IMG/VR virus record: IMGVR_UViG_2531839448_000006
Length of the DNA stretch: 41,535 nucleotides
Source: a virus
Lineage: Duplodnaviria > Heunggongvirae > Uroviricota > Caudoviricetes
Reading direction: 5' to 3' (one strand)
The notes below the pieces were generated by a model. The model had not been told where the DNA came from. It made no database searches and saw only the letters and a list, made by a program, of their open reading frames with translations. Positions 1 to 39,587 of this stretch are shown here, piece after piece; the stretch's first letter is position 1, and each line of letters starts with the position of its first letter. Made by a program: the position numbers and the translations under genes.

Positions 1-774
1 TTACAACTTAAAGAGTTTCGCTTGCCCTGGATTAACAGCTTCGACGTAGTTTTTGACCCCTATTCTGTGCGGCTCATAATTGCTTGAATAGAAATCAATC
101 AGGAAGTCACTCATTTTCTGAGATGTGACTTTCATAACTCCCTTACTCAAAGTTAAATTAAACACGCTAATCTTTGACGATGGTGCCTGAGTTTTACTCA
201 TGTTGGCTTGATAACCAGATTTGCGCATTGCCACTAGTGCTTCGTCGTAAGCCGCTTGTAATTGGGCCAAATCGTTTGACGAGATGATCACATCATCCAT
301 AAACACACTTAGCTTGAGATCATGATGTTTGTTCAATCGGCGTAGTAAGCTACCAAAATAACTTTTATCTAAGCAGAGGGTTGCAAGTATTGGAGATTGA
401 ACAAAACCAAAAGGGAGGACATGCTTATGTGGACTATGGGACAAGTTTCTTACAGTTGAAAATGTTGAGATTTCCCGCGCTTGAGAATAGGTGAAGTAGC
501 TCTTTAGATCACGGGTGATACGACTACGGCTCGTTGACTGAAAAAATTGTTTAATATCAACAACGGCAAAAAAATCACTTTTTAAGTGTAATCTGGCAGC
601 TTTAAGATGCCCACCAGTTCTTAGATGGTAAAAATAGAGTGGCGGAATCCACTTGTTTCTGACAGCCTGAAGTATCTTCCCTCCGACTTTACGTGCCTCA
701 ACGCTTGGGACATAAACCCAAACCCCGGGCTTAATCTCAAATTTATCTTCCCACCTTTGAACTTCTATTGTCAT
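1..774 (-). CDS. Reverse transcriptase-domain protein, compact (257 aa)
   Basis: Translation shows RT motif A (FFAVVDIKQFF), motif B (LPFGFVQSPILATL) and motif C (FMDD, DD codons near 292-297). ATG at 772-774 with an in-frame stop one codon upstream; stop codon at 1-3, so 257 aa is full length in this sequence. Motif spacing resembles retron-type RTs but no VTG motif seen. Confidence 0.75.
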   Translation of the reverse strand: MTIEVQRWEDKFEIKPGVWVYVPSVEARKVGGKILQAVRNKWIPPLYFYHLRTGGHLKAARLHLKSDFFAVVDIKQFFQSTSRSRITRDLKSYFTYSQAREISTFSTVRNLSHSPHKHVLPFGFVQSPILATLCLDKSYFGSLLRRLNKHHDLKLSVFMDDVIISSNDLAQLQAAYDEALVAMRKSGYQANMSKTQAPSSKISVFNLTLSKGVMKVTSQKMSDFLIDFYSSNYEPHRIGVKNYVEAVNPGQAKLFKL

Positions 775-916
775 GAGTTAAATTGCTGTAGTTGAAGGCC
801 ATGTTAAGAACGGCGTAAACCGCACCAACTAAGCCAACAAACGCGGTTGCGCATTTGAGCATAGCGGTGATCAGTTCAACACGCGCCTTAACTAAGCCAA
901 GTTCGTTTGTATCCAT
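743..916 (-). CDS. Small hydrophobic protein (about 57 aa) immediately upstream of and overlapping the RT gene
   Basis: ORF-track frame 743..931; internal ATG at 914-916 is preceded by GGAGG at 7-nt spacing. Product contains one long hydrophobic stretch (LITAMLKCATAFVGLVGAVYAVLNMAF). Overlaps RT start by 32 nt. Could alternatively be non-coding (ncRNA region). Confidence 0.35.
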   Translation of the reverse strand: MDTNELGLVKARVELITAMLKCATAFVGLVGAVYAVLNMAFNYSNLTHDNRSSKVGR

Positions 917-1099
917 AACTTGTTCCTCCATAGATACCTGACGTCTCTTAGCGCAAGCGCATGGCCCTAACTAAATAAAAAATAACAACCAGTTAGCCCA
1001 GAAAGCTTAACAAGTCGGCGTCCGATTACATGGCAATCAGGTAATCGGTCCGCAGTCGCAAAGCGACAAACTACATATCTACGGAGTGGGGATAAATCC

Positions 1100-2438
1100 C
1101 ATAAGCGCTAACTTAAGGGTTGTGGTATTACGCCTGATATGATTTAACGTGCCGATGAATTACTCTCACGATAACTGGTCAGCAATTCTGGCCCATATTG
1201 GTAAGCCCGAAGAACTGGATACTTCGGCACGTAATGCCGGGGCTCTAACCCGCCGCCGCGAAATTCGTGATGCTGCAACTCTGCTACGTCTGGGGCTGGC
1301 TTACGGCCCCGGGGGGATGTCATTACGTGAAGTCACTGCATGGGCTCAGCTCCATGACGTTGCAACATTATCTGACGTGGCTCTCCTGAAGCGGCTGCGG
1401 AATGCCGCCGACTGGTTTGGCATACTTGCCGCACAAACACTTGCTGTACGCGCCGCAGTTACGGGTTGTACAAGCGGAAAGAGATTGCGTCTTGTCGATG
1501 GAACAGCAATCAGTGCGCCCGGGGGCGGCAGCGCTGAATGGCGACTACATATGGGATATGATCCTCATACCTGTCAGTTCACTGATTTTGAGCTAACCGA
1601 CAGCAGAGACGCTGAACGGCTGGACCGATTTGCGCAAACGGCAGACGAGATACGCATTGCTGACCGGGGATTCGGTTCGCGTCCCGAATGTATCCGCTCA
1701 CTTGCTTTTGGAGAAGCTGATTATATCGTCCGGGTTCACTGGCGAGGATTGCGCTGGTTAACTGCAGAAGGAATGCGCTTTGACATGATGGGTTTTCTGC
1801 GCGGGCTGGATTGCGGTAAGAACGGTGAAACCACTGTAATGATAGGCAATTCAGGTAATAAAAAAGCCGGAGCTCCCTTTCCGGCACGTCTCATTGCCGT
1901 ATCACTTCCTCCCGAAAAAGCATTAATCAGTAAAACCCGACTGCTCAGCGAGAATCGTCGAAAAGGACGAGTAGTTCAGGCGGAAACGCTGGAAGCAGCG
2001 GGCCATGTGCTATTGCTAACATCATTACCGGAAGATGAATATTCAGCAGAGCAAGTGGCTGATTGTTACCGTCTGCGATGGCAAATTGAACTGGCTTTTA
2101 AGCGGCTCAAAAGTTTGCTGCACCTGGATGCTTTGCGTGCAAAGGAACCTGAACTCGCGAAAGCGTGGATATTTGCTAATCTACTCGCCGCATTTTTAAT
2201 TGACGACATAATCCAGCCATCGCTGGATTTCCCCCCCAGAAGTGCCGGATCCGAAAAGAAGAACTAACTCGTTGTGGAGAATAACAAAAATGGTCATCTG
2301 GAGCTTACAGGTGGCCATTCGTGGGACAGTATCCCTGACAGCCTACAAAACGCAATTGAAGAACGCGAGGCATCGTCTTAACGAGGCACCGAGGCGTCGC
2401 ATTCTTCAGATGGTTCAACCCTTAAGTTAGCGCTTATG
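1100..2438 (+). mobile_element. IS186 (IS4 family) insertion sequence, intact
   Basis: Perfect 23-bp terminal inverted repeats CATAAGCGCTAACTTAAGGGTTG at 1100-1122 and 2416-2438 (reverse complement). Flanking 10-bp direct repeat GGATAAATCC at 1090-1099 and 2439-2448 (target-site duplication). Element length about 1.34 kb, single transposase ORF. Confidence 0.9.
1155..2267 (+). CDS. insL: IS186 transposase
   Basis: 372-aa ORF (track 1149..2267, GTG at 1149; ATG at 1155) recognised from memory as the IS186/IS4-family transposase (MNYSHDNWSAILAHIGKPEEL...). Confidence 0.9.
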   Translation: MNYSHDNWSAILAHIGKPEELDTSARNAGALTRRREIRDAATLLRLGLAYGPGGMSLREVTAWAQLHDVATLSDVALLKRLRNAADWFGILAAQTLAVRAAVTGCTSGKRLRLVDGTAISAPGGGSAEWRLHMGYDPHTCQFTDFELTDSRDAERLDRFAQTADEIRIADRGFGSRPECIRSLAFGEADYIVRVHWRGLRWLTAEGMRFDMMGFLRGLDCGKNGETTVMIGNSGNKKAGAPFPARLIAVSLPPEKALISKTRLLSENRRKGRVVQAETLEAAGHVLLLTSLPEDEYSAEQVADCYRLRWQIELAFKRLKSLLHLDALRAKEPELAKAWIFANLLAAFLIDDIIQPSLDFPPRSAGSEKKN

Positions 2439-2526
2439 GGATAAATCCCCGCTAACGTCAGGCATTGTTAATTTAACCTCAACTTATAGAAAAGTATAGT
2501 TTTAAATCATGTAGTTATGTCGCCAT

Positions 2527-2745
2527 TTAAATCGGCAAACCCACCTGTTTAAATTTATGAGGATGCGGCTGAACCGGATTTGACTCTTTTGGCGTTGCAA
2601 TCGAACGAACAAAAGTTTCATGGGTAACAAAAGTATGGCTGCAGTTAATGTTCTGGCACTGGTTGTAACGCTCTTTGGTCAATGAAGATACCTGAAAACT
2701 GCTGCGAGTATGGGCGGCACTTCCACACAGTGGGCAAATCATCAT
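2527..2745 (-). CDS. ogr: Late gene transcriptional activator Ogr (zinc-finger)
   Basis: CPLCGSAAH...C..C zinc-finger pattern and close similarity to P2 Ogr (recalled); 72 aa if started at ATG 2743-2745; position after gene D as in P2. Confidence 0.85.
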   Translation of the reverse strand: MMICPLCGSAAHTRSSFQVSSLTKERYNQCQNINCSHTFVTHETFVRSIATPKESNPVQPHPHKFKQVGLPI

Positions 2746-16167: not shown

Positions 16168-16613
16168 GCTGCTACCTGTTGCGCAATCTGATTACGGATC
16201 ATCCAGAAGGCAATAACGGTCAGCAGATAAAAGACCAGGGTAATAGCCCACCCCGTCCAGGCGAAACTTACGACAATCAGCAATCGCATCACCCAGCTGA
16301 TAAATACGTTTTCTTTTCGGGTAATGGTCTTTAGCAAAGATGCCCTCAACTCCTGCCAGAGCGGGCCGTTCTTAATTGACGCAGCCAGTGCTACCGGAAT
16401 TACCGCCCATGTCAGCAGACAGGCTACCCAGACACCGGACGCTGCCAGTACCGGAAAAATCCCCTGCGGATACACCATTGCTGCGATCAACAGCGCCATC
16501 CATAACATCAGAAACAGCCCGCTGATTACTTTCTTTTTCATTTCAGTTTGCTCCCTGTAAGCACCAGGCCATCTCCCGCGCACGGCGGTTATCCAGCCCC
16601 TGATTAAAAACAC
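16164..16613 (-). CDS. lysA: LysA, membrane protein affecting lysis timing
   Basis: 149 aa with multiple hydrophobic helices; P2 lysA position. Confidence 0.7.
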   Translation of the reverse strand: MFLIRGWITAVRGRWPGAYREQTEMKKKVISGLFLMLWMALLIAAMVYPQGIFPVLAASGVWVACLLTWAVIPVALAASIKNGPLWQELRASLLKTITRKENVFISWVMRLLIVVSFAWTGWAITLVFYLLTVIAFWMIRNQIAQQVAA

Positions 16614-23544: not shown

Positions 23545-24066
23545 TCAGTTAATCAGTTTATTTAATGACTTAGACCACTTCTGTCCCAAATCATCAATAT
23601 CAAAATCACCATCTCGCTGCTGCCATTTAAAAACTAAGGCTATAAGTTCACTCTTGAGGATTCTTTTATAATAATCCTTAGATTTTAATTGCTCAAGTAT
23701 ATGTTCACCAACCTCAGCAAGCTTTCTATGATTTAATTCTGACAGATCTCGATGCAAATGGTTAACTGATTTATACAAAGTATTTCCTTCAGTACGAGAA
23801 ATATCAATACCTTTATCTTCAAACCATTGTGAATCAAGCCAAACCAAATCTATCGTAGCTGGCTCTGACATCGTGGTGGCAAGGGCAACAATAATTTTCT
23901 CTACCGATTCATCTTGAAAATCGATAGAGTCAGAAACCCAAACTGACAAGGTGTTATTAGAGGTCCTTGTGCAACCTGTTATCGCGTCTGCGGATATATT
24001 GTCAGGTGCTCTACCTTTATTACATTCCCATTTACTATGGGATATTTTACGCAATAAATATGTCAT
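23545..24066 (-). CDS. Hypothetical protein, third gene of AT-rich three-gene accessory operon
   Basis: 173-aa ORF; ATG overlaps upstream stop (TAATG) indicating translational coupling; no motif recognisable by eye; AT-rich versus prophage core. Confidence 0.6.
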   Translation of the reverse strand: MTYLLRKISHSKWECNKGRAPDNISADAITGCTRTSNNTLSVWVSDSIDFQDESVEKIIVALATTMSEPATIDLVWLDSQWFEDKGIDISRTEGNTLYKSVNHLHRDLSELNHRKLAEVGEHILEQLKSKDYYKRILKSELIALVFKWQQRDGDFDIDDLGQKWSKSLNKLIN

Positions 24067-24713
24067 TATAGACTTCTCAAATATCCTATAACTGCTTCTT
24101 TATATTCTTCCACCCAATCAGCATCAAATTTCCTCATTCTTTCAAGGACTGGAATAAATGATTTTTCCCCCCAAGACTCAACTGCACGGATCGCTGCCTC
24201 AAATATAAGTTCATTCTCAAGAGAACAAACTCCCATAATCATAGCGTCAGCTTTATTACCTAACCATTCATATTCAATAGTCGATGCAAAATTAATGAAG
24301 TTCTTTACATGTTGATCATTCATTCTGTACAATTGTACCCATGTCCTTTGAAAGGACTCTTGGAATAAATCCTGATTTTTATCATACAAGAACTCCATGT
24401 AAATCTGTGTCTTGCTTATCTCGCCTTCAATGTAATCTTCTGAACATGTTAACTCAATTAGTCTAGAGGTACATTTTGAAACCTGAATTTCAAAGTTCTG
24501 CTTAGTTGACGAACCTTGATTTATTGACTCAGTCTCTAATTGAAAGCCACCATTTGTTTTGCTATGTGACAGCTCATTTCTTTTAATATCAGCGTAAATG
24601 ATATTGTTACCATCATAATAATCAGAAAATGCACCTATTGAACTTACCCCATTTTTAAACTTAGGTAAGCCAAAAGGCTTTTCATCACTTATTATAAAAC
24701 TATTCTTTACCAT
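24066..24713 (-). CDS. Hypothetical protein, second gene of three-gene accessory operon
   Basis: 215-aa ORF starting 10 nt after the upstream stop with GGTGA just upstream of the ATG; no recognisable motif. Confidence 0.6.
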   Translation of the reverse strand: MVKNSFIISDEKPFGLPKFKNGVSSIGAFSDYYDGNNIIYADIKRNELSHSKTNGGFQLETESINQGSSTKQNFEIQVSKCTSRLIELTCSEDYIEGEISKTQIYMEFLYDKNQDLFQESFQRTWVQLYRMNDQHVKNFINFASTIEYEWLGNKADAMIMGVCSLENELIFEAAIRAVESWGEKSFIPVLERMRKFDADWVEEYKEAVIGYLRSL

Positions 24714-24722
24714 AGCATCACC

Positions 24723-25418
24723 TTACAGAGAAGTGTAGCGTTGTAAATTATCAATAGTTTTAAGATTGTCCTGACACAATAACTCTAGCACGCGGATATA
24801 TTCATCCCAACCAAACCGCATATATCCATTTTGAGGAAGAGTATTAGTATCAGTTTCAAATAATACGCAATCACTTGGCATACCATTATTCAAAAATGGA
24901 GCTGAAATTTCAGCGCGTCTAATTGTACTAATACTATTAATTTCTTCCTGATACTCTTCAATATTTTTCCTTACAGCTATACGATTGTCCCACTCAAATG
25001 GATTAACACCTTTATAGGTAAACAAAGCATTGTAAAGCGAAAAGTAAACAGATTCATCCCCTTGATAGATACGTGAATTCAGAACAGCTATCCTATTTCC
25101 TTTTTTCATCGGAAATACGTTTTGTAGTTCCCTAGATATAGATAGAACCATTTCTGAAAACGCTTGAGGTTCCCCCCCCAAACCATTAAAAATGATTCCA
25201 TGGCTAGGAAACTCGACTCTTACTGTTTGATTGGTATCTACCATGATAAGAATTTGCTTTTTCTCACCAGTGATGGCATTAATCTCCTGACCAAAAGTAG
25301 GTACAAATCCAAATTTTCCAATCTTATCAAGCATAGATCCAATAGTTAGTGTATTTGGAACTATATCATTATTATTTGTGAAAAAATTAATCTGATGCGT
25401 CTGTTCAATCAATTTCAT
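24723..25418 (-). CDS. Hypothetical protein, first gene of three-gene accessory operon
   Basis: 231-aa ORF with strong RBS (AAGGAG, 5-nt spacer) before ATG at 25416-25418; no recognisable motif. Confidence 0.6.
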   Translation of the reverse strand: MKLIEQTHQINFFTNNNDIVPNTLTIGSMLDKIGKFGFVPTFGQEINAITGEKKQILIMVDTNQTVRVEFPSHGIIFNGLGGEPQAFSEMVLSISRELQNVFPMKKGNRIAVLNSRIYQGDESVYFSLYNALFTYKGVNPFEWDNRIAVRKNIEEYQEEINSISTIRRAEISAPFLNNGMPSDCVLFETDTNTLPQNGYMRFGWDEYIRVLELLCQDNLKTIDNLQRYTSL

Positions 25419-31835: not shown

Positions 31836-32468
31836 ATGTTAAACATCAGAATGGGTTCCGATACGGGAGGTAAAGCAGCTATTGAGAGGCTGCTTGCGGC
31901 TTATGGATTCACAACTAAGCAGGCATTAAGTGAGCACCTGAATGTCTCAAAAAGCACTATGGCAAACAGAGTGTTACGTGACAGCTTTCCTGCTGACTGG
32001 ATAATTCAGTGCGCACTAGAAACCGGTGTTTCGTTGCTTTGGTTAGCTACAGGACAGGGAAGCATGAAAGCAGGATCTGAGACTGAAAAAAGATCTCATA
32101 ATGAGAACAAACAAGCAATTAAACCGTTATCTAAACTCATAACTCCATCTATTCCTAAAGGAACCTTGGAGAATGGACAACTCAGTATTGATGAAGAGAT
32201 TTTCCTAGACCACAGCATATTACCTGCAAATTATGAAGAATCGATGTTCTTAGAAACCCCTACTGATTGTTATCTCATCGATAAATCAGTTAAACAAGTC
32301 AGCAATGGATTCTGGCTTATCAATATTGATGGAATGATTATTATTGCAAAAATTATGCGGATTCCCGGCAATAAGATTGTAGTAAATCAAGATGAAGCGT
32401 CTTTCGAGTGCTCTGCTGATGATGTGGAAGTTATTGGGCGTGCAGTCAAAGTAATAAAGAGTATCTAA
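31836..32468 (+). CDS. cI: CI-like immunity repressor (186 type)
   Basis: 210 aa with N-terminal HTH (TKQALSEHLNVSKSTMANRV); no obvious S24 peptidase Ser/Lys autocleavage motif; transcribed with int. Confidence 0.7.
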   Translation: MLNIRMGSDTGGKAAIERLLAAYGFTTKQALSEHLNVSKSTMANRVLRDSFPADWIIQCALETGVSLLWLATGQGSMKAGSETEKRSHNENKQAIKPLSKLITPSIPKGTLENGQLSIDEEIFLDHSILPANYEESMFLETPTDCYLIDKSVKQVSNGFWLINIDGMIIIAKIMRIPGNKIVVNQDEASFECSADDVEVIGRAVKVIKSI

Positions 32469-32470
32469 AC

Positions 32471-33487
32471 ATGACTGTCAGAAAACAGCCAAACGGCAAA
32501 TGGTTGTGTGAGTGCTATCCCAATGGACGCAATGGCAAGCGCGTGCGTAAGCAATTTGCTACGAAAGGAGAAGCCATTGCTTTTGAAAGCTTCACAATGG
32601 AAGAAGTGAATAAAAAACCGTGGCTAGGTGAAAAGGATGATCGGCGACGCCTATCAGAATTAATTGAGCTTTGGTATTCCCTGTATGGCCAGACACTCGC
32701 AGACCCCAAGCGCCTCATGGCGAAACTTAGAATTATCTGTAATGGTCTAGGCGACCCCATCGCCTCAGAACTGACAGCCGGTGACTTTACAAAATACCGC
32801 GAAGCACGGTTAAAAGGCGACGTTCGTAACGAAGACGGCACACTAATGTCGCCAGTAAAACCACGCACGGTGAATCTTGAGCAACGTAACCTATCATCGG
32901 TTTTCGGCACATTGAAAAAACTAGGCCACTGGTCAGCACCAAATCCTCTCGCCGGGCTGCCAACATTTAAAATCGCTGAGGGGGAACTGGCGTTCCTGAC
33001 CTCGGAAGAAATTAAACGTCTGCTAGATGCCTGCGCTGATTCTCAAAACCCCAGTCTGCTTTTGATTGCAAAAATATGCCTGGCCACCGGCGCACGCTGG
33101 AGTGAAGCCGAAAACCTGCAGGGCCATCAGTTATCTAAATACCGCATCACTTATACCAAGACGAAGGGCAAGAAAAACCGCACCGTGCCGATATCTCAAG
33201 ATCTGTATGACGAACTCCCCAAGAACAGAGGGAAGCTATTCACCCCGTGCAGAAAAGCCTTTGAACGGGCAGTAAAGCGAGCTGGCATCGAGCTGCCAGA
33301 GGGCCAATGCACTCACGTGCTACGTCATACATTCGCCAGTCATTTTATGATGAATGGCGGAAACATACTGGTCCTACGCGATATTCTGGGCCATGCCGAT
33401 ATAAAAATGACGATGATTTACGCCCACTTTTCGCCGGATCATCTTGAAGATGCAGTTACTAAAAACCCTTTATGCAACTTAAGATAG
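32471..33487 (+). CDS. int: Tyrosine integrase
   Basis: 338 aa; C-terminal catalytic region with R...HxxRH...Y pattern (VLRHTFASHF...MIYAHF); position after the repressor as in P2/186. Confidence 0.9.
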   Translation: MTVRKQPNGKWLCECYPNGRNGKRVRKQFATKGEAIAFESFTMEEVNKKPWLGEKDDRRRLSELIELWYSLYGQTLADPKRLMAKLRIICNGLGDPIASELTAGDFTKYREARLKGDVRNEDGTLMSPVKPRTVNLEQRNLSSVFGTLKKLGHWSAPNPLAGLPTFKIAEGELAFLTSEEIKRLLDACADSQNPSLLLIAKICLATGARWSEAENLQGHQLSKYRITYTKTKGKKNRTVPISQDLYDELPKNRGKLFTPCRKAFERAVKRAGIELPEGQCTHVLRHTFASHFMMNGGNILVLRDILGHADIKMTMIYAHFSPDHLEDAVTKNPLCNLR

Positions 33488-33865: not shown

Positions 33866-35608
33866 CTACTCAAGAAGATATTCTAACTCATCTTTTATCG
33901 GGATAACTTGCTCATAAAGTCGGTGATATGACTTCCCAATTGCGCCTCTGAATTGTATTAACTTTGGTGGCTTGTTACCTATATTAATAATATGGTCTTG
34001 AGCTATACCTGGGTAGGGATCAATAAATACAATTTCAGATATACCTAACTGATAAGCTTTTTTCGCACACAGCTCACAGGGACTGGCAGTTGTATATAAC
34101 CTCCCCCCCTGAACGCCAATGCCACCATATTTTGCAAGTTGTAAAAATGCGTTTTCCTCAGCATGTAATGCACGTGTATGAACTTGATTACCTTTTTTAT
34201 CTTTATCAAGATCATTATGTATATCTTTAAAACAATAAGATAAGTTCCTGCCTCTATAAATATCACCAGTTTTATCTATCGCCCTAAAATTTAATAGTTT
34301 CTCATTAGCTTTAATTCTGAAAGAACTATTATTTCTCTCATAATGACTGTACACTTTTTCATCAAAGTCGTTCATTAGGCCATCTAGCGATCTCATAGAG
34401 CAAGGAATCTGACCGTTGGCGACATCATTCCAACCCACTGATTTTATTGAATTTTCACCATCAGTTACTACAGCTCCCACCTGTCTAGATATACAACCAG
34501 AGTTTAATTTTACCGTATACGCAACTTGCATAACCCTTTCCATTGCAGTAGGTGTTATCAGACCAGGATGCTTCATCAGTGCGATGTACCACGCTAATTG
34601 TGCTTTTAAAATATTGTCATTATCAAATTCATTTTTTGGGTTAAAAATGTGTATATCTGATAGTTCAATGCATTTAGTTACATTTGGATTAGTGAGATGT
34701 TTGTAAGAGTTATCACCTTTACCTGACTCTACAGAATCTATTTCCTCTATCTGCTTTTCAGAAAACTTATGTAGTTTCCGCAAATAGTTTGTTCGATGTT
34801 CATCTGGGGCATTTATTGACATTAAATGAAATGCAGAATATCTATCCTTAAAAAATTTTGCTTCATATGGATTTCTAATAGCATCTATGACAATTAATGC
34901 GTTATCTCTTTTGCTTTTTCTTATTAATTTAATAACCCTATTAATAGTTTCCGGCAAATGAAAAACAGATTTAGGTATAAACTCTTTATCTTCAAAATCG
35001 ACTTCAATACGCCCACGGCGTCTAATTGACTTACCTGCTAACTGATAGACTGAAACATATAAATTTGAGTTTATCGCATTTAGTTCAGCTTTGAATTCCT
35101 TAGTAAATTTTCTAACTAACCTCAAAATTGATATAAATTTATTAATCGTTTTTTCATTAAGCTTCAATTCACTATTATGATCAAGCAAATTCTCAATTAC
35201 ATTTTTAAATCTTGTTAAAATGAGATTATCTGAAAATACACCAAAAGTTAATACATTATCTAAATGCTCTTTACTGATAGATTTATTAGATGATAGAATA
35301 AACTCAGAAGCTTCTTCAACTGTTAACATCAAAAGATACGCTGAGATTAGGTCACTCACCTTAATTGAGTAAAAATTTTCCCAGTGATTTTCTGCGAATT
35401 TTTTAACTATATTATAACGATGGACATCCAATCCCTTGTAAAAACCCTGTAATTTACTTACATCAGGGAAGACTGTTTTTTCGTTTTCAAGAATATTAGC
35501 TGTTGTTGTGCAACCAGAACCAGTTCGACCTGTCAAACCGACTAAAATAAACTGCCCATTTTCAAGGAAAAGCTCACTAACGAATTTTTTTCTTTCATCA
35601 CGTCCCAC
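33866..35608 (-). CDS. P-loop NTPase/kinase-like plus cytidine/dCMP-deaminase fusion protein (dCTP-deaminase-type defence candidate)
   Basis: 580 aa; N-terminal glycine-rich P-loop-like motif GLTGRTGSGCTT; C-terminal zinc-deaminase signature HAEENA ... PCELC about 30 residues apart; AT-rich gene. Confidence 0.65.
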   Translation of the reverse strand: MGRDERKKFVSELFLENGQFILVGLTGRTGSGCTTTANILENEKTVFPDVSKLQGFYKGLDVHRYNIVKKFAENHWENFYSIKVSDLISAYLLMLTVEEASEFILSSNKSISKEHLDNVLTFGVFSDNLILTRFKNVIENLLDHNSELKLNEKTINKFISILRLVRKFTKEFKAELNAINSNLYVSVYQLAGKSIRRRGRIEVDFEDKEFIPKSVFHLPETINRVIKLIRKSKRDNALIVIDAIRNPYEAKFFKDRYSAFHLMSINAPDEHRTNYLRKLHKFSEKQIEEIDSVESGKGDNSYKHLTNPNVTKCIELSDIHIFNPKNEFDNDNILKAQLAWYIALMKHPGLITPTAMERVMQVAYTVKLNSGCISRQVGAVVTDGENSIKSVGWNDVANGQIPCSMRSLDGLMNDFDEKVYSHYERNNSSFRIKANEKLLNFRAIDKTGDIYRGRNLSYCFKDIHNDLDKDKKGNQVHTRALHAEENAFLQLAKYGGIGVQGGRLYTTASPCELCAKKAYQLGISEIVFIDPYPGIAQDHIINIGNKPPKLIQFRGAIGKSYHRLYEQVIPIKDELEYLLE

Positions 35609-35793
35609 TTATGAATGTAAGAATATTCAACATATTAATTATAATTTATTAACTCATTTTGTTCTAGATACTTGATGTAATGGCGGCACTTTGGCGACGG
35701 AGCATTAAAAACGCGTAAGACGAGCAAATACAACAAAACACTAACACATTGTTTTTAAATATAAATAGCTGTTTTTACTATACTAAAAATGGT

Positions 35794-35831
35794 ATGTAGG
35801 AATTTCGGACGCGGGTTCAACTCCCGCCAGC
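35794..35831 (+). other. 38-bp remnant of the tmRNA (ssrA) 3-prime end (att-site-like island boundary)
   Basis: ATGTAGGAATTTCGGACGCGGGTTCAACTCCCGCCAGC matches the 3-prime region of E. coli ssrA as I recall it, lacking the terminal TCCACCA and all upstream tmRNA sequence. Confidence 0.6.
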
Positions 35832-35963
35832 CAATCATGATTGGACGGTATAAGGACAACACCAATAAAAACAGTAAGTTAGCAGTCTCAGCAGGACACC
35901 GACCAGACGGTGAAGAGACATAAAAGGATACGCAAAGGAGCCGCGGCTCCTGGTGACATGAAA

Positions 35964-35984
35964 GCCCACAGATGTGGGCTTTTT
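35964..35984. terminator. Terminator-like hairpin
   Basis: Stem GCCCAC / GTGGGC with AGAT loop followed by TTTTT on the plus strand; lies 10 bp beyond the stop of the minus-strand autotransporter fragment. Confidence 0.4.
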
Positions 35985-35993
35985 CGTTGATGG

Positions 35994-38900
35994 TCAGAAC
36001 GACCAGTTCACACCAGCTACCCCGTTCCACGGGGATTCCACACCGGCACCATGGCTATACCCCACCCCAAGATGCCCGCTTAACGTACTGCTGAATGAGG
36101 CTTTAATACCTGCCTGGTATATTCCACGTCTGCCCGACAAATCATTGACGAAATTACCGTCACTATTCACTTTCACCCGGTTATCATCGACAAATTCTTT
36201 GCGCACAGCCGCCTTCAGCCACGGCTCAACTTCCATACCGTTCCCCAGACGCATGTTGTAACTCAGCGTTGCACCCAGTTCACGATATAAACTGCGGGTA
36301 TCGACTGATTTCGATTCCATGCCATTGGATAAATGATATTCAGGGTTATCAGCGGTGAACCCCCGTTAACGATGCATACGGCGTCAGGTTCCAGTTACCA
36401 TCGGTAAATCGCATCCCGGTTTCAATGTGACCGCCCAGCCCGTAGCTGCGATAACTGCCGTTGGCGGCTCCACCGCTGCCAACCGTGGAGTCGCGAGCTT
36501 CGGTACCTGCTAATACCAATAAATTACCGCCATTTTCCAGCAACATATTGGTCGCTAAATTGCCGGAAATGGAAAAAGTGCCGTACTGGTGAGTACCGCT
36601 GATTTCAATACCGTTAGCCGTGCTCGTCTGGAGAGCGGCACCGCTGTTCTGGACGATATCTGTCGCTTTGCCATTATCGTTAACTGTCAGCGTACCGCCT
36701 TCATTGATCTTTGTTTTTATTGCCTCTCCGTTAGCTGAAACTGTTTGTATTCCGCCGTCGTTAATCGTTGTCTCATTCGCCACCCCCTCGACGATTTGTT
36801 CGCCGCCGGTGAGCGTCGTGCCTGTCGCAGTGGCTTTTGTTTTGACGATCTCCCGTCCGCCCGTATTGACCTGTGTTTTGTCAGAAGAGGTGTCTGACTC
36901 CACGGTTAACACGCCGCCATTTGCCAGCAGGATATTGTTCGCCGCACCCTGCTCGATGCTGAACGCGACGCCATCCGCGCGTGTTCCTGTGACCCGCGTC
37001 GCCCTGGTGGTTGCAACCAAAGCGCCCTGGCTACTCTGCTGTATCCCCGTTGCGCTGCCTTTCTCCCGCACATCGAGTGTGCCGCCGTCATTAAGCACCG
37101 AGTTTTCAGCCAGACCGCCCTCATTAACTACCTGTGAACACCCATTAATAATGGAACCTTCCGCTATCCCGTTTGCCATAATTTGTTGTAGGCCAGAGAC
37201 GATATCGGTATTGATCGCCTTACCATAATTCTGAACGGTTTGTGTGCCGCCATTGATGTGCGTTTTGTCAGTTGACCCACCATCAACAATTTGTTCACCA
37301 CTTTCAATATTTGCCTCAGTGGCTAAACCATATACCGTTTGCTTGCCACCTTTGATATTTGCTTTATCAGAAGTGGCACTGGCATATATTGTTTGGGTGC
37401 CAGCACTATTAAGTACAGTGCCAACATCTTTTCCATAAACATCCATTTTGCCGTTGGCATTAATAATCGTATCAACTGCCCGGGAACCAGTGACGACTGT
37501 TAATGAGCCAGCGTTTTCCAGCACTACATTTTTAGCTTCTGAATTCCTGATGTAGAAAGCATCACCATAACTGTTGGTTCCTTCGATAAGGGTTCCGGAA
37601 GTTGTGGAAGCAATTAATGCGCCGCCGGATTGTTGCTCAACATGCTTAGCCTCACCACCGTCCTGAACCTCCAGAACGCCACCATTATTAAGTCTGGTGG
37701 TATCTGTTTTAGCCTCCTTCTGGACAATCAGCTTACCGCCAGCATCAACGGTAGTATTTTTCGCCGAGGTTTTAGCCACTACCGTCAGTTCGCCGGTATT
37801 TTCCAGCACAACATAATTAGCCTCCCCTCCGGTAATAGTGAAGTGAGAGAGCTTGTTGTATCCTTCAATATCAGTCCCTGCGCCCGTGTTGGCAACTAAA
37901 GCACTGCCCGTCTCCTGGTTAACCCCATGTGCAATACCGCCGGTATAGACAATCAGCGAGCCTCCGGCGCTAATATTGCTGCCAATTGCCGTACCATCTT
38001 TCTCAACAACTTGCTGGCTCCCGGAGGATATAATTGTTGTGTCAGCTTTCCCACCGCTTTTGATATTTTGCGTTCCGCTGTTGATATTGGTGCCTGTGGC
38101 TATGCCATAATTATTAAGATTCTGTGTGCCACCATTAATTATGGTATTTGTCGCGTTTCCTGCAACATCCATAACCCCGCCATTATCTATTCGGGTCGCA
38201 TCAGCTTTAGCATTCGTTAAAACTGACATTGTTCCTTTATCTTTAATAATCGTCTTGTTTGCGGAATGAGATACTTCTAAATGGCCTCCATTTTCCAGCA
38301 ACACATTGTCTTCCACTTTATTGTGGATGGAGAATGCACCTTCACTATTCGTACCGCTCACCGTCGTACCGTTAGTGTTTGTTTTTAAAATTGCACCATC
38401 GTGCTGGGTAACATTTGTTGCCGTACCACCACTAACATCAAGCACGCCACCGGAATAAACTTCAATAACATCCGAGGTGCTGGTGTTATTAACAATTTGC
38501 GTGCCACCAGAATAGATCTGCGTAATTTTTGCCGTTGACTTACTATTCAGAGACTGAGTTCCGCCTTCAATCGTCGTGTCCAGCGCACGGCTCTCATATA
38601 CTCTTTGCTCACCGCCATTTTTAATGGTTGTTGTTTCTACTGTGCTCTGTTCAACATACTGTCGACCACCATTTATGGTTGTGTTCGTTGCCAGACTTCC
38701 TTGTACTACGTCCTGAGAGCCAGACTTATTTATCGTTGTACCATCAGCATGCCCTTGAACTTTTACTATCTGGCTACCACCATCAATGAGTATTCCATTC
38801 GCACTCCCTCCCTCTACGCGTGAAGCACCGCCCTTAATTGTCGTTCCATTGCTGATACCCCCTTTATAAACGTCCTGATTGCCACTCTCGATTGTCGTAC

Positions 38901-39249
38901 CTGTGGAAATACCCCCGTCATGAATTGACTGTCTGCCACCGTTAATGGTTGTATTATTAGCCTGCCCCACAAAATTGTTATGACTTCCTATATCTTGATA
39001 TCCACCAGATTCAATAAGACTTCCATTAGATACCCCGCCATGAACATTCTGCTGGCCATGGTTGATAATATGAGTGTTATTTGTTGTACCTCGTTCATCC
39101 ACTTTTTGGTTGCCATCTACAGTCTCATCGTTTACCACACCAATAACATCAGGAGTGAAGGCCGCCATACCGGGCGGGGCATATATCAAGGCAGATATCA
39201 ATAAGGAAAGTACTGAGCGGCGACAATAATGGGGACTGGTCCTGTTCAT
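35994..39249 (-). pseudogene. Autotransporter adhesin, disrupted (reading frame breaks at about 36,320-36,349; beta-domain shortened)
   Basis: Passenger ORF 36349..39378 (likely start MNRTSPHY at 39247-39249 with signal peptide) is rich in T/G/N/S repeats. A separate-frame 108-aa ORF 35994..36320 ends in the classic outer-membrane beta-barrel terminus ...GVNWSF. Combined translocator region is only about 150 aa. Confidence 0.6.
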
Positions 39250-39587
39250 AAATTTCATCCTCTGAAAAGTGAATACTGAGTAGCGTTTAAGCGACCTTAG
39301 CTCTGCTGCAACATCAGCCCACAGGCACCAGACCAGGGGATTCATCCTGAAGAGACAGCGCAAGTGTATTGTGTTCACCGCTCATCAAAGACATCATGAT
39401 GAAATGATGATATTCCACATAAGAAAGAAGCATTTTTTAAACGCAGTGCGCTGAAGTATGGTTGGATAAAAAAGTCAATCTATTCAGGGAATACGGGGGT
39501 ATTCTTTTCTTTCGACAATCAGGTCGTCGGCAAAATAAAATGATTTACATAATCGTTTCTGATGAATATCTTCTGCTCACATAAAAA

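Follow-up and report, generated by a model that had tools for sequence, protein, structure and literature searches.

The window analyzed here, which is the whole stretch of 41,535 nt, carries at positions 35794–35831 on the plus strand an isolated 38-bp sequence (ATGTAGGAATTTCGGACGCGGGTTCAACTCCCGCCAGC, as read from the window), and the question raised by this locus is what such a fragment marks and to which element it belongs. In a pattern search, the 38-mer occurred once within the window, even with three mismatches permitted, and matches were found in 0 of 100 shuffled controls. The earlier note, made from the sequence of the window, had assigned the segment to the 3′ region of the E. coli tmRNA gene, ssrA, and alignment confirmed this assignment at 38/38 identity, the segment corresponding to nt 319–356 of the 363-nt gene. 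It is 100% identical to the annotated ssrA of K-12 and of thousands of other E. coli genomes, and a 66-base query around it (in which bases 15–52 are the 38-mer) matched 5,426 of 5,426 complete E. coli genomes. In terms of tmRNA structure, the segment comprises the 3′ strand of helix P2, the T-arm, and the first 4 nt of the 3′ strand of the acceptor stem.

The second copy was found in the window's nearest genome, that of E. coli CV839-06 (porcine ETEC; NZ_CP025753.1), which is 99.97–100% identical to the window apart from one insertion sequence, IS421. In CV839-06, the 38-mer occurs twice, 34,600 bp apart, once within intact ssrA (L001 41467), where it aligns to nt 319–356, and once at the window's site (L001 6867); this pair forms the direct repeats at the prophage ends. 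Intact ssrA lies approximately 110 bp to the left of window base 1 in CV839-06 and is followed by the phage right arm. The window itself contains attR, and the attL copy falls beyond its left edge, at a position that we infer from CV839-06 and two sister genomes. The earlier observation that no copy lies beside ogr holds for the window, but the att sites that it left unassigned can be placed, since the partner is the ssrA gene beyond the left edge, missed because the window starts to the right of it. The compared sites are as follows.

attP, phage Cartapus: ...tagtaaaaatggt-[38-mer]-TCCACCAAataaatcaaggggttacgtgaaagcgtagcccctttttc...
attP, RE-2010 and Fels-2: same design as Cartapus; the Fels-2 record is cut through its annotated 24+23-bp attP
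attL, CV839-06: ssrA...ccgagg-[38-mer]-TCCACCAAataaatcaatgggttacgtgaaagcgtagcccttttttc...
attR, window: ...tatactaaaaatggt-[38-mer]-CAATCATGATTGGACGG...
attB (empty), strain 13E0725: ssrA...-[38-mer]-TCCACCA-ATCATGATTGGACGGTATAAGG...

Around the fragment, the window is organized as follows.

35672–35793, plus strand: P arm of attR, the phage-derived left arm, with homology to the corresponding arms in Cartapus, RE-2010, Fels-2, and SopEPhi
35680–35688 (ATGGCGGCA) and 35691–35699 (TTGGCGACG): candidate 186-type integrase arm repeats, conserved in position in five phage or prophage arms
35794–35831, plus strand: attR core
35832–35833, plus strand: CA, with which the displaced ssrA 3′ end terminates, from alignment to 13E0725 and the attR of NZ_CP104112.1
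35834–35993, plus strand: host right arm (B′), the DNA directly 3′ of ssrA where no island is present, extending to the ypjA C-terminal fragment
35994–39378 (35994–36320 and 36349–39378), minus strand: split ypjA/ehaD autotransporter gene, backbone

The left arm and core of the window matched the attP of Cartapus, RE-2010, Fels-2, SEN8, and SopEPhi, and the matches to the Fels-2 group consisted of the int–cI block, the left arm, and the core, at 83–86% identity. The SopEPhi match spans window positions 35681–35831, and the phage matches stop at 35831 with two exceptions, namely SE479_1PHIH2 (35822) and Fels-2 (35817), whose record is interrupted there within attP. The core itself has the same sequence as the attP core in Cartapus and RE-2010 and the attL (ssrA) core in CV839-06. 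On the other side of the prophage, the DNA just 3′ of ssrA in CV839-06 matches the attP right arm of Cartapus, with a terminator-like hairpin 12 nt past the CCA end of ssrA. The repeats ATGGCGGCA and TTGGCGACG fit the consensus published for 186-type integrase arm sites (tgccGCCActt; PMC3448106). Furthermore, the T-stem arms GCGGG/CCCGC flank the 7-nt T-loop within the core, which presumably provides the usual inverted-repeat layout of a tyrosine-recombinase core. In the empty site of strain 13E0725 (smpB-ssrA-ATCATGATTGGACGG...-ypjA), the two outer flanks are joined precisely. The anatomy of attP, attL, attR, and attB is therefore what site-specific integration at the ssrA 3′ end would be expected to produce. 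The related attP sites and the empty site agree with the earlier proposal of an element integrated at ssrA with the fragment at its distal end, and the 38-mer is very probably the attR core of one complete prophage of the Fels-2/SopEPhi type (Peduoviridae, P2 family). Integration of Fels-2 and SopEPhi in ssrA is documented in PMC3448106, which cites Pelludat et al. 2003.

By the proposed mechanism, the phage attP contains a 46–47-bp copy of the 3′ end of ssrA followed by the phage's own terminator, and the tyrosine integrase recombines this copy with its identical counterpart in ssrA. After integration, ssrA (attL, just past the left edge of the window) would be completed by phage DNA; the predicted attL would read ...CCAGCTCCACCA at the ssrA 3′ end and then AATAAATCAATGGGTTACG..., approximately 110 bp before base 1. 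The native 3′ end of the host gene would be displaced about 35 kb to the right, beside the int side of the phage, where it would form the orphan fragment. The reconstituted attP would be window positions 35672–35831 joined to TCCACCAA and the phage right arm.

To the right of the fragment, the native downstream DNA (ATCATGATTGGACGG...) directly follows the last CA of ssrA, and the flank differed from that of 13E0725 by one SNP over the bases compared. The two parts of the split ypjA/ehaD gene are a C-terminal ORF of 108 aa and a pseudogene. In island-free 13E0725, smpB-ssrA is followed by the same split ypjA, the pin fragment, and ypjCB, indicating that the split is unrelated to the prophage. 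The earlier note was therefore right that the backbone (autotransporter, pin fragment) resumes rightward, and a comparison with the ssrA/CP4-57 region of K-12 gave the same right-hand backbone (ypjA, pin fragment, ypjCB, ileY). In other words, the backbone to the right of attR is an ordinary ssrA–ypjA junction.

The fragment and its native flank meet at a small deletion. It had been noted earlier that the terminal TCCACCA is missing; this is correct for exact matching but overstated, as the alignment to the empty site shows that only five bases (TCCAC, ssrA nt 357–361; CTCCA is an equivalent placement) are gone, between 35831 and 35832. The undeleted attR of NZ_CP104112.1 reads [38-mer]-TCCACCAATCATGATTGG, whereas that of the window reads [38-mer]-CAATCATGATTGG. 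The absence of TCCACCA was also considered as the mark of an older, truncated island, which the alignment to the empty site and the undeleted attR copies ruled out. The deletion starts 9 bp 3′ of the T-loop and removes most of the 3′ strand of the acceptor stem in the displaced fragment. CV839-06 and 13E0725 have the same ssrA sequence throughout its 363 nt, and the attL copy is thus undeleted.

A 40-mer spanning the deleted junction, which is unable to seed on the undeleted form, matched 149 of 5,426 complete E. coli genomes, most of them clonal (ST95-like) and reflecting few independent events. The carriers include three porcine ETEC strains, CV839-06 among them; CAVP773 and MSB1_4I, with other Fels-2-like left arms and other right-flank haplotypes; a large ST95-type group (UTI89, S88, APEC O1); and ATCC 11775. 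The deleted junction was seen alongside three Fels-2-like left arms (the window, L008, and L009). ATCC 11775 (L011, NZ_CP033092.2) has an unrelated 43-kb prophage at ssrA, with an HK97-type head and a contractile tail. The att repeat of this prophage (copies at L011 3334 and 46458) begins at CGGGTTCAAC, in the T-arm, and continues beyond ssrA for more than 170 bp. Its distal copy has the 5-bp deletion together with scattered SNPs, so the deletion may belong to the att region of the element itself. In strain WB61 (L010, NZ_CP020025.1, 4667–5040), the deletion lies inside ssrA itself, which is 359 nt long and ends in ...CCAGCCA. The locus is island-free (smpB, ssrA, ypjA), and WB61 is the only such genome among the 5,426; it is predicted, from a single assembly, to be a candidate natural tmRNA-defective isolate.

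Genomes in which ssrA abuts the ypjA-side flank number 2,340, an upper bound on those with an unoccupied site; the figure was rejected as an exact count of empty ssrA sites, as ATCC 11775 has this junction and yet carries a prophage, its att repeat extending past ssrA. In the match listing, the laboratory strain DTU-1 (NZ_CP026612.1) has an ssrA–flank junction one base shorter than that of intact genomes, which fits the published deltaT357 from CP4-57 excision in a K-12 derivative.

The deletion is most likely a host-side allele, which would be older than the window prophage or acquired independently of it. Alternatively, as in ATCC 11775 it sits inside a long, diverged repeat that could be phage-derived, recombination may have transferred it from another element, in which case it would not be an old host allele; it may also be a recurrent event. 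A further account keeps attR unchanged and treats the deletion as a private mutation after integration, that is, neutral decay with no history or consequence in a prophage that no longer excises. In favor of this account, no selection acts on the displaced fragment, the prophage shows some decay in the form of IS421 and a truncated fil gene, and only a handful of Fels-2-like lysogens are listed with the deleted junction. However, the same 5-bp deletion is found next to several left arms and in more than one right-flank haplotype, as well as in island-free WB61, and PMC10107115 places it in other E. coli elements and in Salmonella. Moreover, int, cI, the cox/apl-like gene, and all structural genes are intact in CV839-06 according to its annotation. 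A private mutation is thus unlikely.

The earlier note had further suggested that the P2-like prophage and/or the kinase-deaminase segment belong to a composite island at ssrA. The gene content of the interval bears on this suggestion, and its main features are as follows.

1–774, minus strand: retron-type reverse transcriptase (PADLOC RT_VI, 6.6e−18; Pfam RVT_1, 2e−21), with its stop codon at window base 1
1101–2437, plus strand: IS421 (IS4 family, DDE_Tnp_1), 1,337 bp, with 12-bp target duplications at 1089–1100 and 2438–2449
2527–2745, minus strand: ogr/Delta-like late activator, the last core gene on the left (attL) side
31836–32468, plus strand: CI repressor, from the annotation of the identical CV839-06 sequence
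32471–33487, plus strand: tyrosine integrase of the P2/186/Fels-2 type (Pfam Int_N, 1.8e−29; Phage_integrase, 9.1e−25)
33866–35608, minus strand: anti-phage dCTP deaminase, with a kinase-like N-terminus and a deaminase domain (PADLOC dCTPase, 4.1e−145; Pfam dCMP_cyt_deam_1)

In CV839-06, the order from the ssrA end is smpB, ssrA, a 108-bp spacer, the reverse transcriptase (RT) gene, a small ORF, and ogr; the middle holds complete sets of P2-type tail, lysis, head, and replication genes, followed by the cox/apl-like gene, cI, and int; and the right end holds the dCTP deaminase gene, the 38-mer, two ypjA fragments, a pin-like recombinase fragment, ypjCB, and tRNA-Ile. The structural genes match P2-like phage records at 96.5% identity, and the integrase gene lies 2.3 kb from the 38-bp core. 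The interval from ssrA to the 38-mer is a single prophage of approximately 34.6 kb plus one IS421. This core-to-core length fits one P2-family genome (Fels-2, 33.7 kb; Cartapus, 33.4 kb; RE-2010, 34.1 kb), which argues against a composite island.

In a composite or tandem island, the 38-mer would end a separate, older element, such as a defense islet with the kinase-deaminase, and the prophage att sites would lie elsewhere. A deaminase gene outside int is unusual for integrated elements (PMC13586616), serial and tandem occupancy are known at ssrA, and a 5-bp deletion common to unrelated elements hints at earlier occupants. Against this, in addition to the length, the deaminase gene is separated from the core by 120 bp with homology to the Fels-2-group attP left arm, arm repeats included; the genomes of Cartapus and RE-2010 hold a cargo gene in the same int–attP slot; and the window contains no other full or degenerate ssrA fragment. 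No second full or degenerate copy of the core was found in the window near ogr, IS421, or the RT gene, and the sole other match to a 16-mer of the core (at 16345, three mismatches, lysis gene region) was at chance level. A composite island is therefore very unlikely, and the suggestion gives way to one P2-family prophage of normal size with the deaminase gene in a phage cargo slot.

The dCTP deaminase and RT genes are phage cargo in two variable slots flanking attP. The RT gene lies between the right arm of attL and ogr, in the slot of the Cartapus “exonuclease” gene. In the slot between int and att, Cartapus and RE-2010 have a gene for a 401-aa RES-domain protein, NZ_CP104112.1 one for a 343-aa protein, and MSB1_4I one for a 222-aa protein, the last two hypothetical; Fels-2 has none. 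The gene in this slot differs by relative (window, L002, L003, L005, and L009), so that the slot acts as a small cargo-exchange site, and a 2026 survey described the int–att interval as a minor defense hotspot of P2-like phages (PMC13586616). These assignments place the dCTP deaminase and the retron-type RT in a mobile phage genome, not in a chromosomal defense island.

The RT gene belongs to a retron-like module (window positions 1–1100 and 2438–2465, minus strand; uninterrupted copy at L001 40225–41351, plus strand), which also has a 57-aa ORF beside the RT gene (743–916). Upstream of the RT gene is a structured region of approximately 180 nt (MFE −67.7 kcal/mol, z −3.06), which a 12-bp long-range inverted repeat closes in the manner of the a1/a2 repeats in retron msr-msd; a search for a retron RNA beside the RT gene gave no Rfam match. 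IS421 sits in the first hairpin (GGGGATTTATCCCC) of this putative ncRNA, which would thus be split, and the retron-like system in the window is probably inactive. IS421 is absent from the otherwise identical CV839-06 sequence, and the same insertion occurs in strains 5735, WP4-S18-ESBL-08, NMBU-W12E19, and EC6563; strains that carry IS421 at the same position, such as 5735, have an undeleted ssrA junction. Separately, three ORFs (173, 215, and 231 aa; window positions 23545–25418, minus strand) lie between the replication-gene side and the portal gene, an interval that is the main defense hotspot of P2-like phages. They had no Pfam or PADLOC match and could represent a candidate undescribed defense system.

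The fragment itself is not a gene, as the earlier note had stated. ARAGORN found no tmRNA or tRNA gene in the window, and no Rfam family matched the window at the gathering threshold. Only nt 319–356 and the CA remain of ssrA at this site, and the 5′ 318 nt are absent; the 35794–35833 fragment thus does not provide what a tmRNA requires (both acceptor strands, a tag reading frame, and pseudoknots). The similarity is almost certainly not due to chance, and the fragment is almost certainly neither a small RNA that is expressed nor a tmRNA pseudogene with a role of its own: a permissive Rfam search did align the tmRNA model below threshold (26.2 bits against a threshold of 47; E-value 9.7e−9 in a 601-bp search), but only over the T-arm and the 3′ part of the acceptor stem, whereas the identity is complete with zero expectation in shuffles, a scan found no promoter-like site in 35550–36100, and the context fully accounts for the fragment as a recombination product. 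In the terminator scan around the att site, a hairpin (AAAGCCCACAGATGTGGGCTTTTT, approximately 35962–35985) was seen by eye and was not reported by the tool.

Among known systems, Fels-2 and SopEPhi of Salmonella and their relatives RE-2010, SEN8, and Escherichia phage Cartapus are the closest to the window prophage, sharing the same core, a homologous left arm with candidate 186-type arm repeats, and the gene order att-(cargo)-ogr...cI-int-(cargo)-att. The window prophage differs in its host (E. coli, versus Salmonella for Fels-2 and SopEPhi), in its cargo (dCTP deaminase versus a RES-domain protein or nothing, and RT versus the “exonuclease” gene), and in the 5-bp deletion of its attR, whereas Fels-2 and SopEPhi are listed with intact CGCCAGCTCCACCA in PMC10107115. 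CP4-57 of K-12 occupies the same chromosomal site with the same right-hand backbone, and its attR is likewise deleted in the 3′ strand of the acceptor stem, by 1 nt rather than 5 nt. However, CP4-57 has a P4-type integrase and is unrelated to the window prophage, and its attR core in K-12 is short and degenerate (CTCCGCCAGC-CCACCA, also given as CTCCGCCAGC-CCACCAATCATGATTGG). Exactly the deletion of the window, at the same position (CGCCAGC-----CA), is listed for Eco48X (RS218), Oi108 (O-island 108; EDL933), and Stm27X (LT2) in Table 1 of PMC10107115, which cites Williams 2003; these elements have other integrase types, and their 5′ identity is shorter, starting at CGGGTTCAAC. With P4, 186 (at ileY), and HP1, the window prophage shares a phage-supplied 3′ end, a displaced partial copy at the far junction, and int near one end; those phages target tRNA genes whereas it targets the tmRNA gene, with no essential difference otherwise.

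The ssrA locus has long been known for element traffic. The junction in the window is an ordinary, already explained integration boundary, in the tmRNA gene, of a known phage group, and the 5-bp-deleted attR allele is already published in PMC10107115. The present analysis fixes the prophage borders for annotation, from ssrA just left of the window to position 35831. It adds a prophage with a P2-type integrase paired with the 5-bp-deleted flank in E. coli, hence one P2-type example for the published set of prophages that occupy ssrA and on whose loss tmRNA would be inactivated, and it adds WB61 as a natural island-free carrier of the deletion. Neither of these two additions alters current understanding.

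What the deletion would mean for the host follows from its position. The sequence that attL and attR have in common lies entirely to the left of the deletion, so any crossover within the core on excision would leave ssrA ending in ...CCAGCCA. The excision product would equal the WB61 allele, with attB as an ssrA ending in ...CCAGCCAATCATG; conversely, the WB61 allele, present in a single strain, is the one expected of an excisant of a deleted-attR prophage. On precise excision, ssrA would end in the deleted fragment and yield an unchargeable tmRNA, as it would lack the strand that pairs with G1–G3, including the G3–U357 wobble pair described in PMC10107115. According to section 2.1 of the same paper (Mol Microbiol 2022), such mutations placed in E. 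coli tmRNA abolished trans-translation; the paper also reports that the excision of CP4-57 inactivates tmRNA (the ssrA deltaT357 “regulatory switch”), with ribosome rescue shifting to ArfA. The two ingredients of a CP4-57-type switch, an acceptor-stem mutation in the displaced fragment and an intact ssrA at attL, are both present, the latter as read in CV839-06; the consequence is reported for CP4-57 and predicted from sequence for the window prophage, on whose retention the tmRNA function of the strain would depend. The deletion could also impair excision itself rather than only its product. We propose, tentatively and with considerable doubt, that the deleted flank acts as a lock, such that an element completing ssrA is hard to lose, the scar persists through successive unrelated ssrA-targeting phages, and WB61 is a rare natural excisant without trans-translation. 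If this is true, excision would leave a tmRNA-null cell dependent on ArfA, and a fully equipped P2-family phage, of a type so far listed only with an intact attR, would be locked in place.
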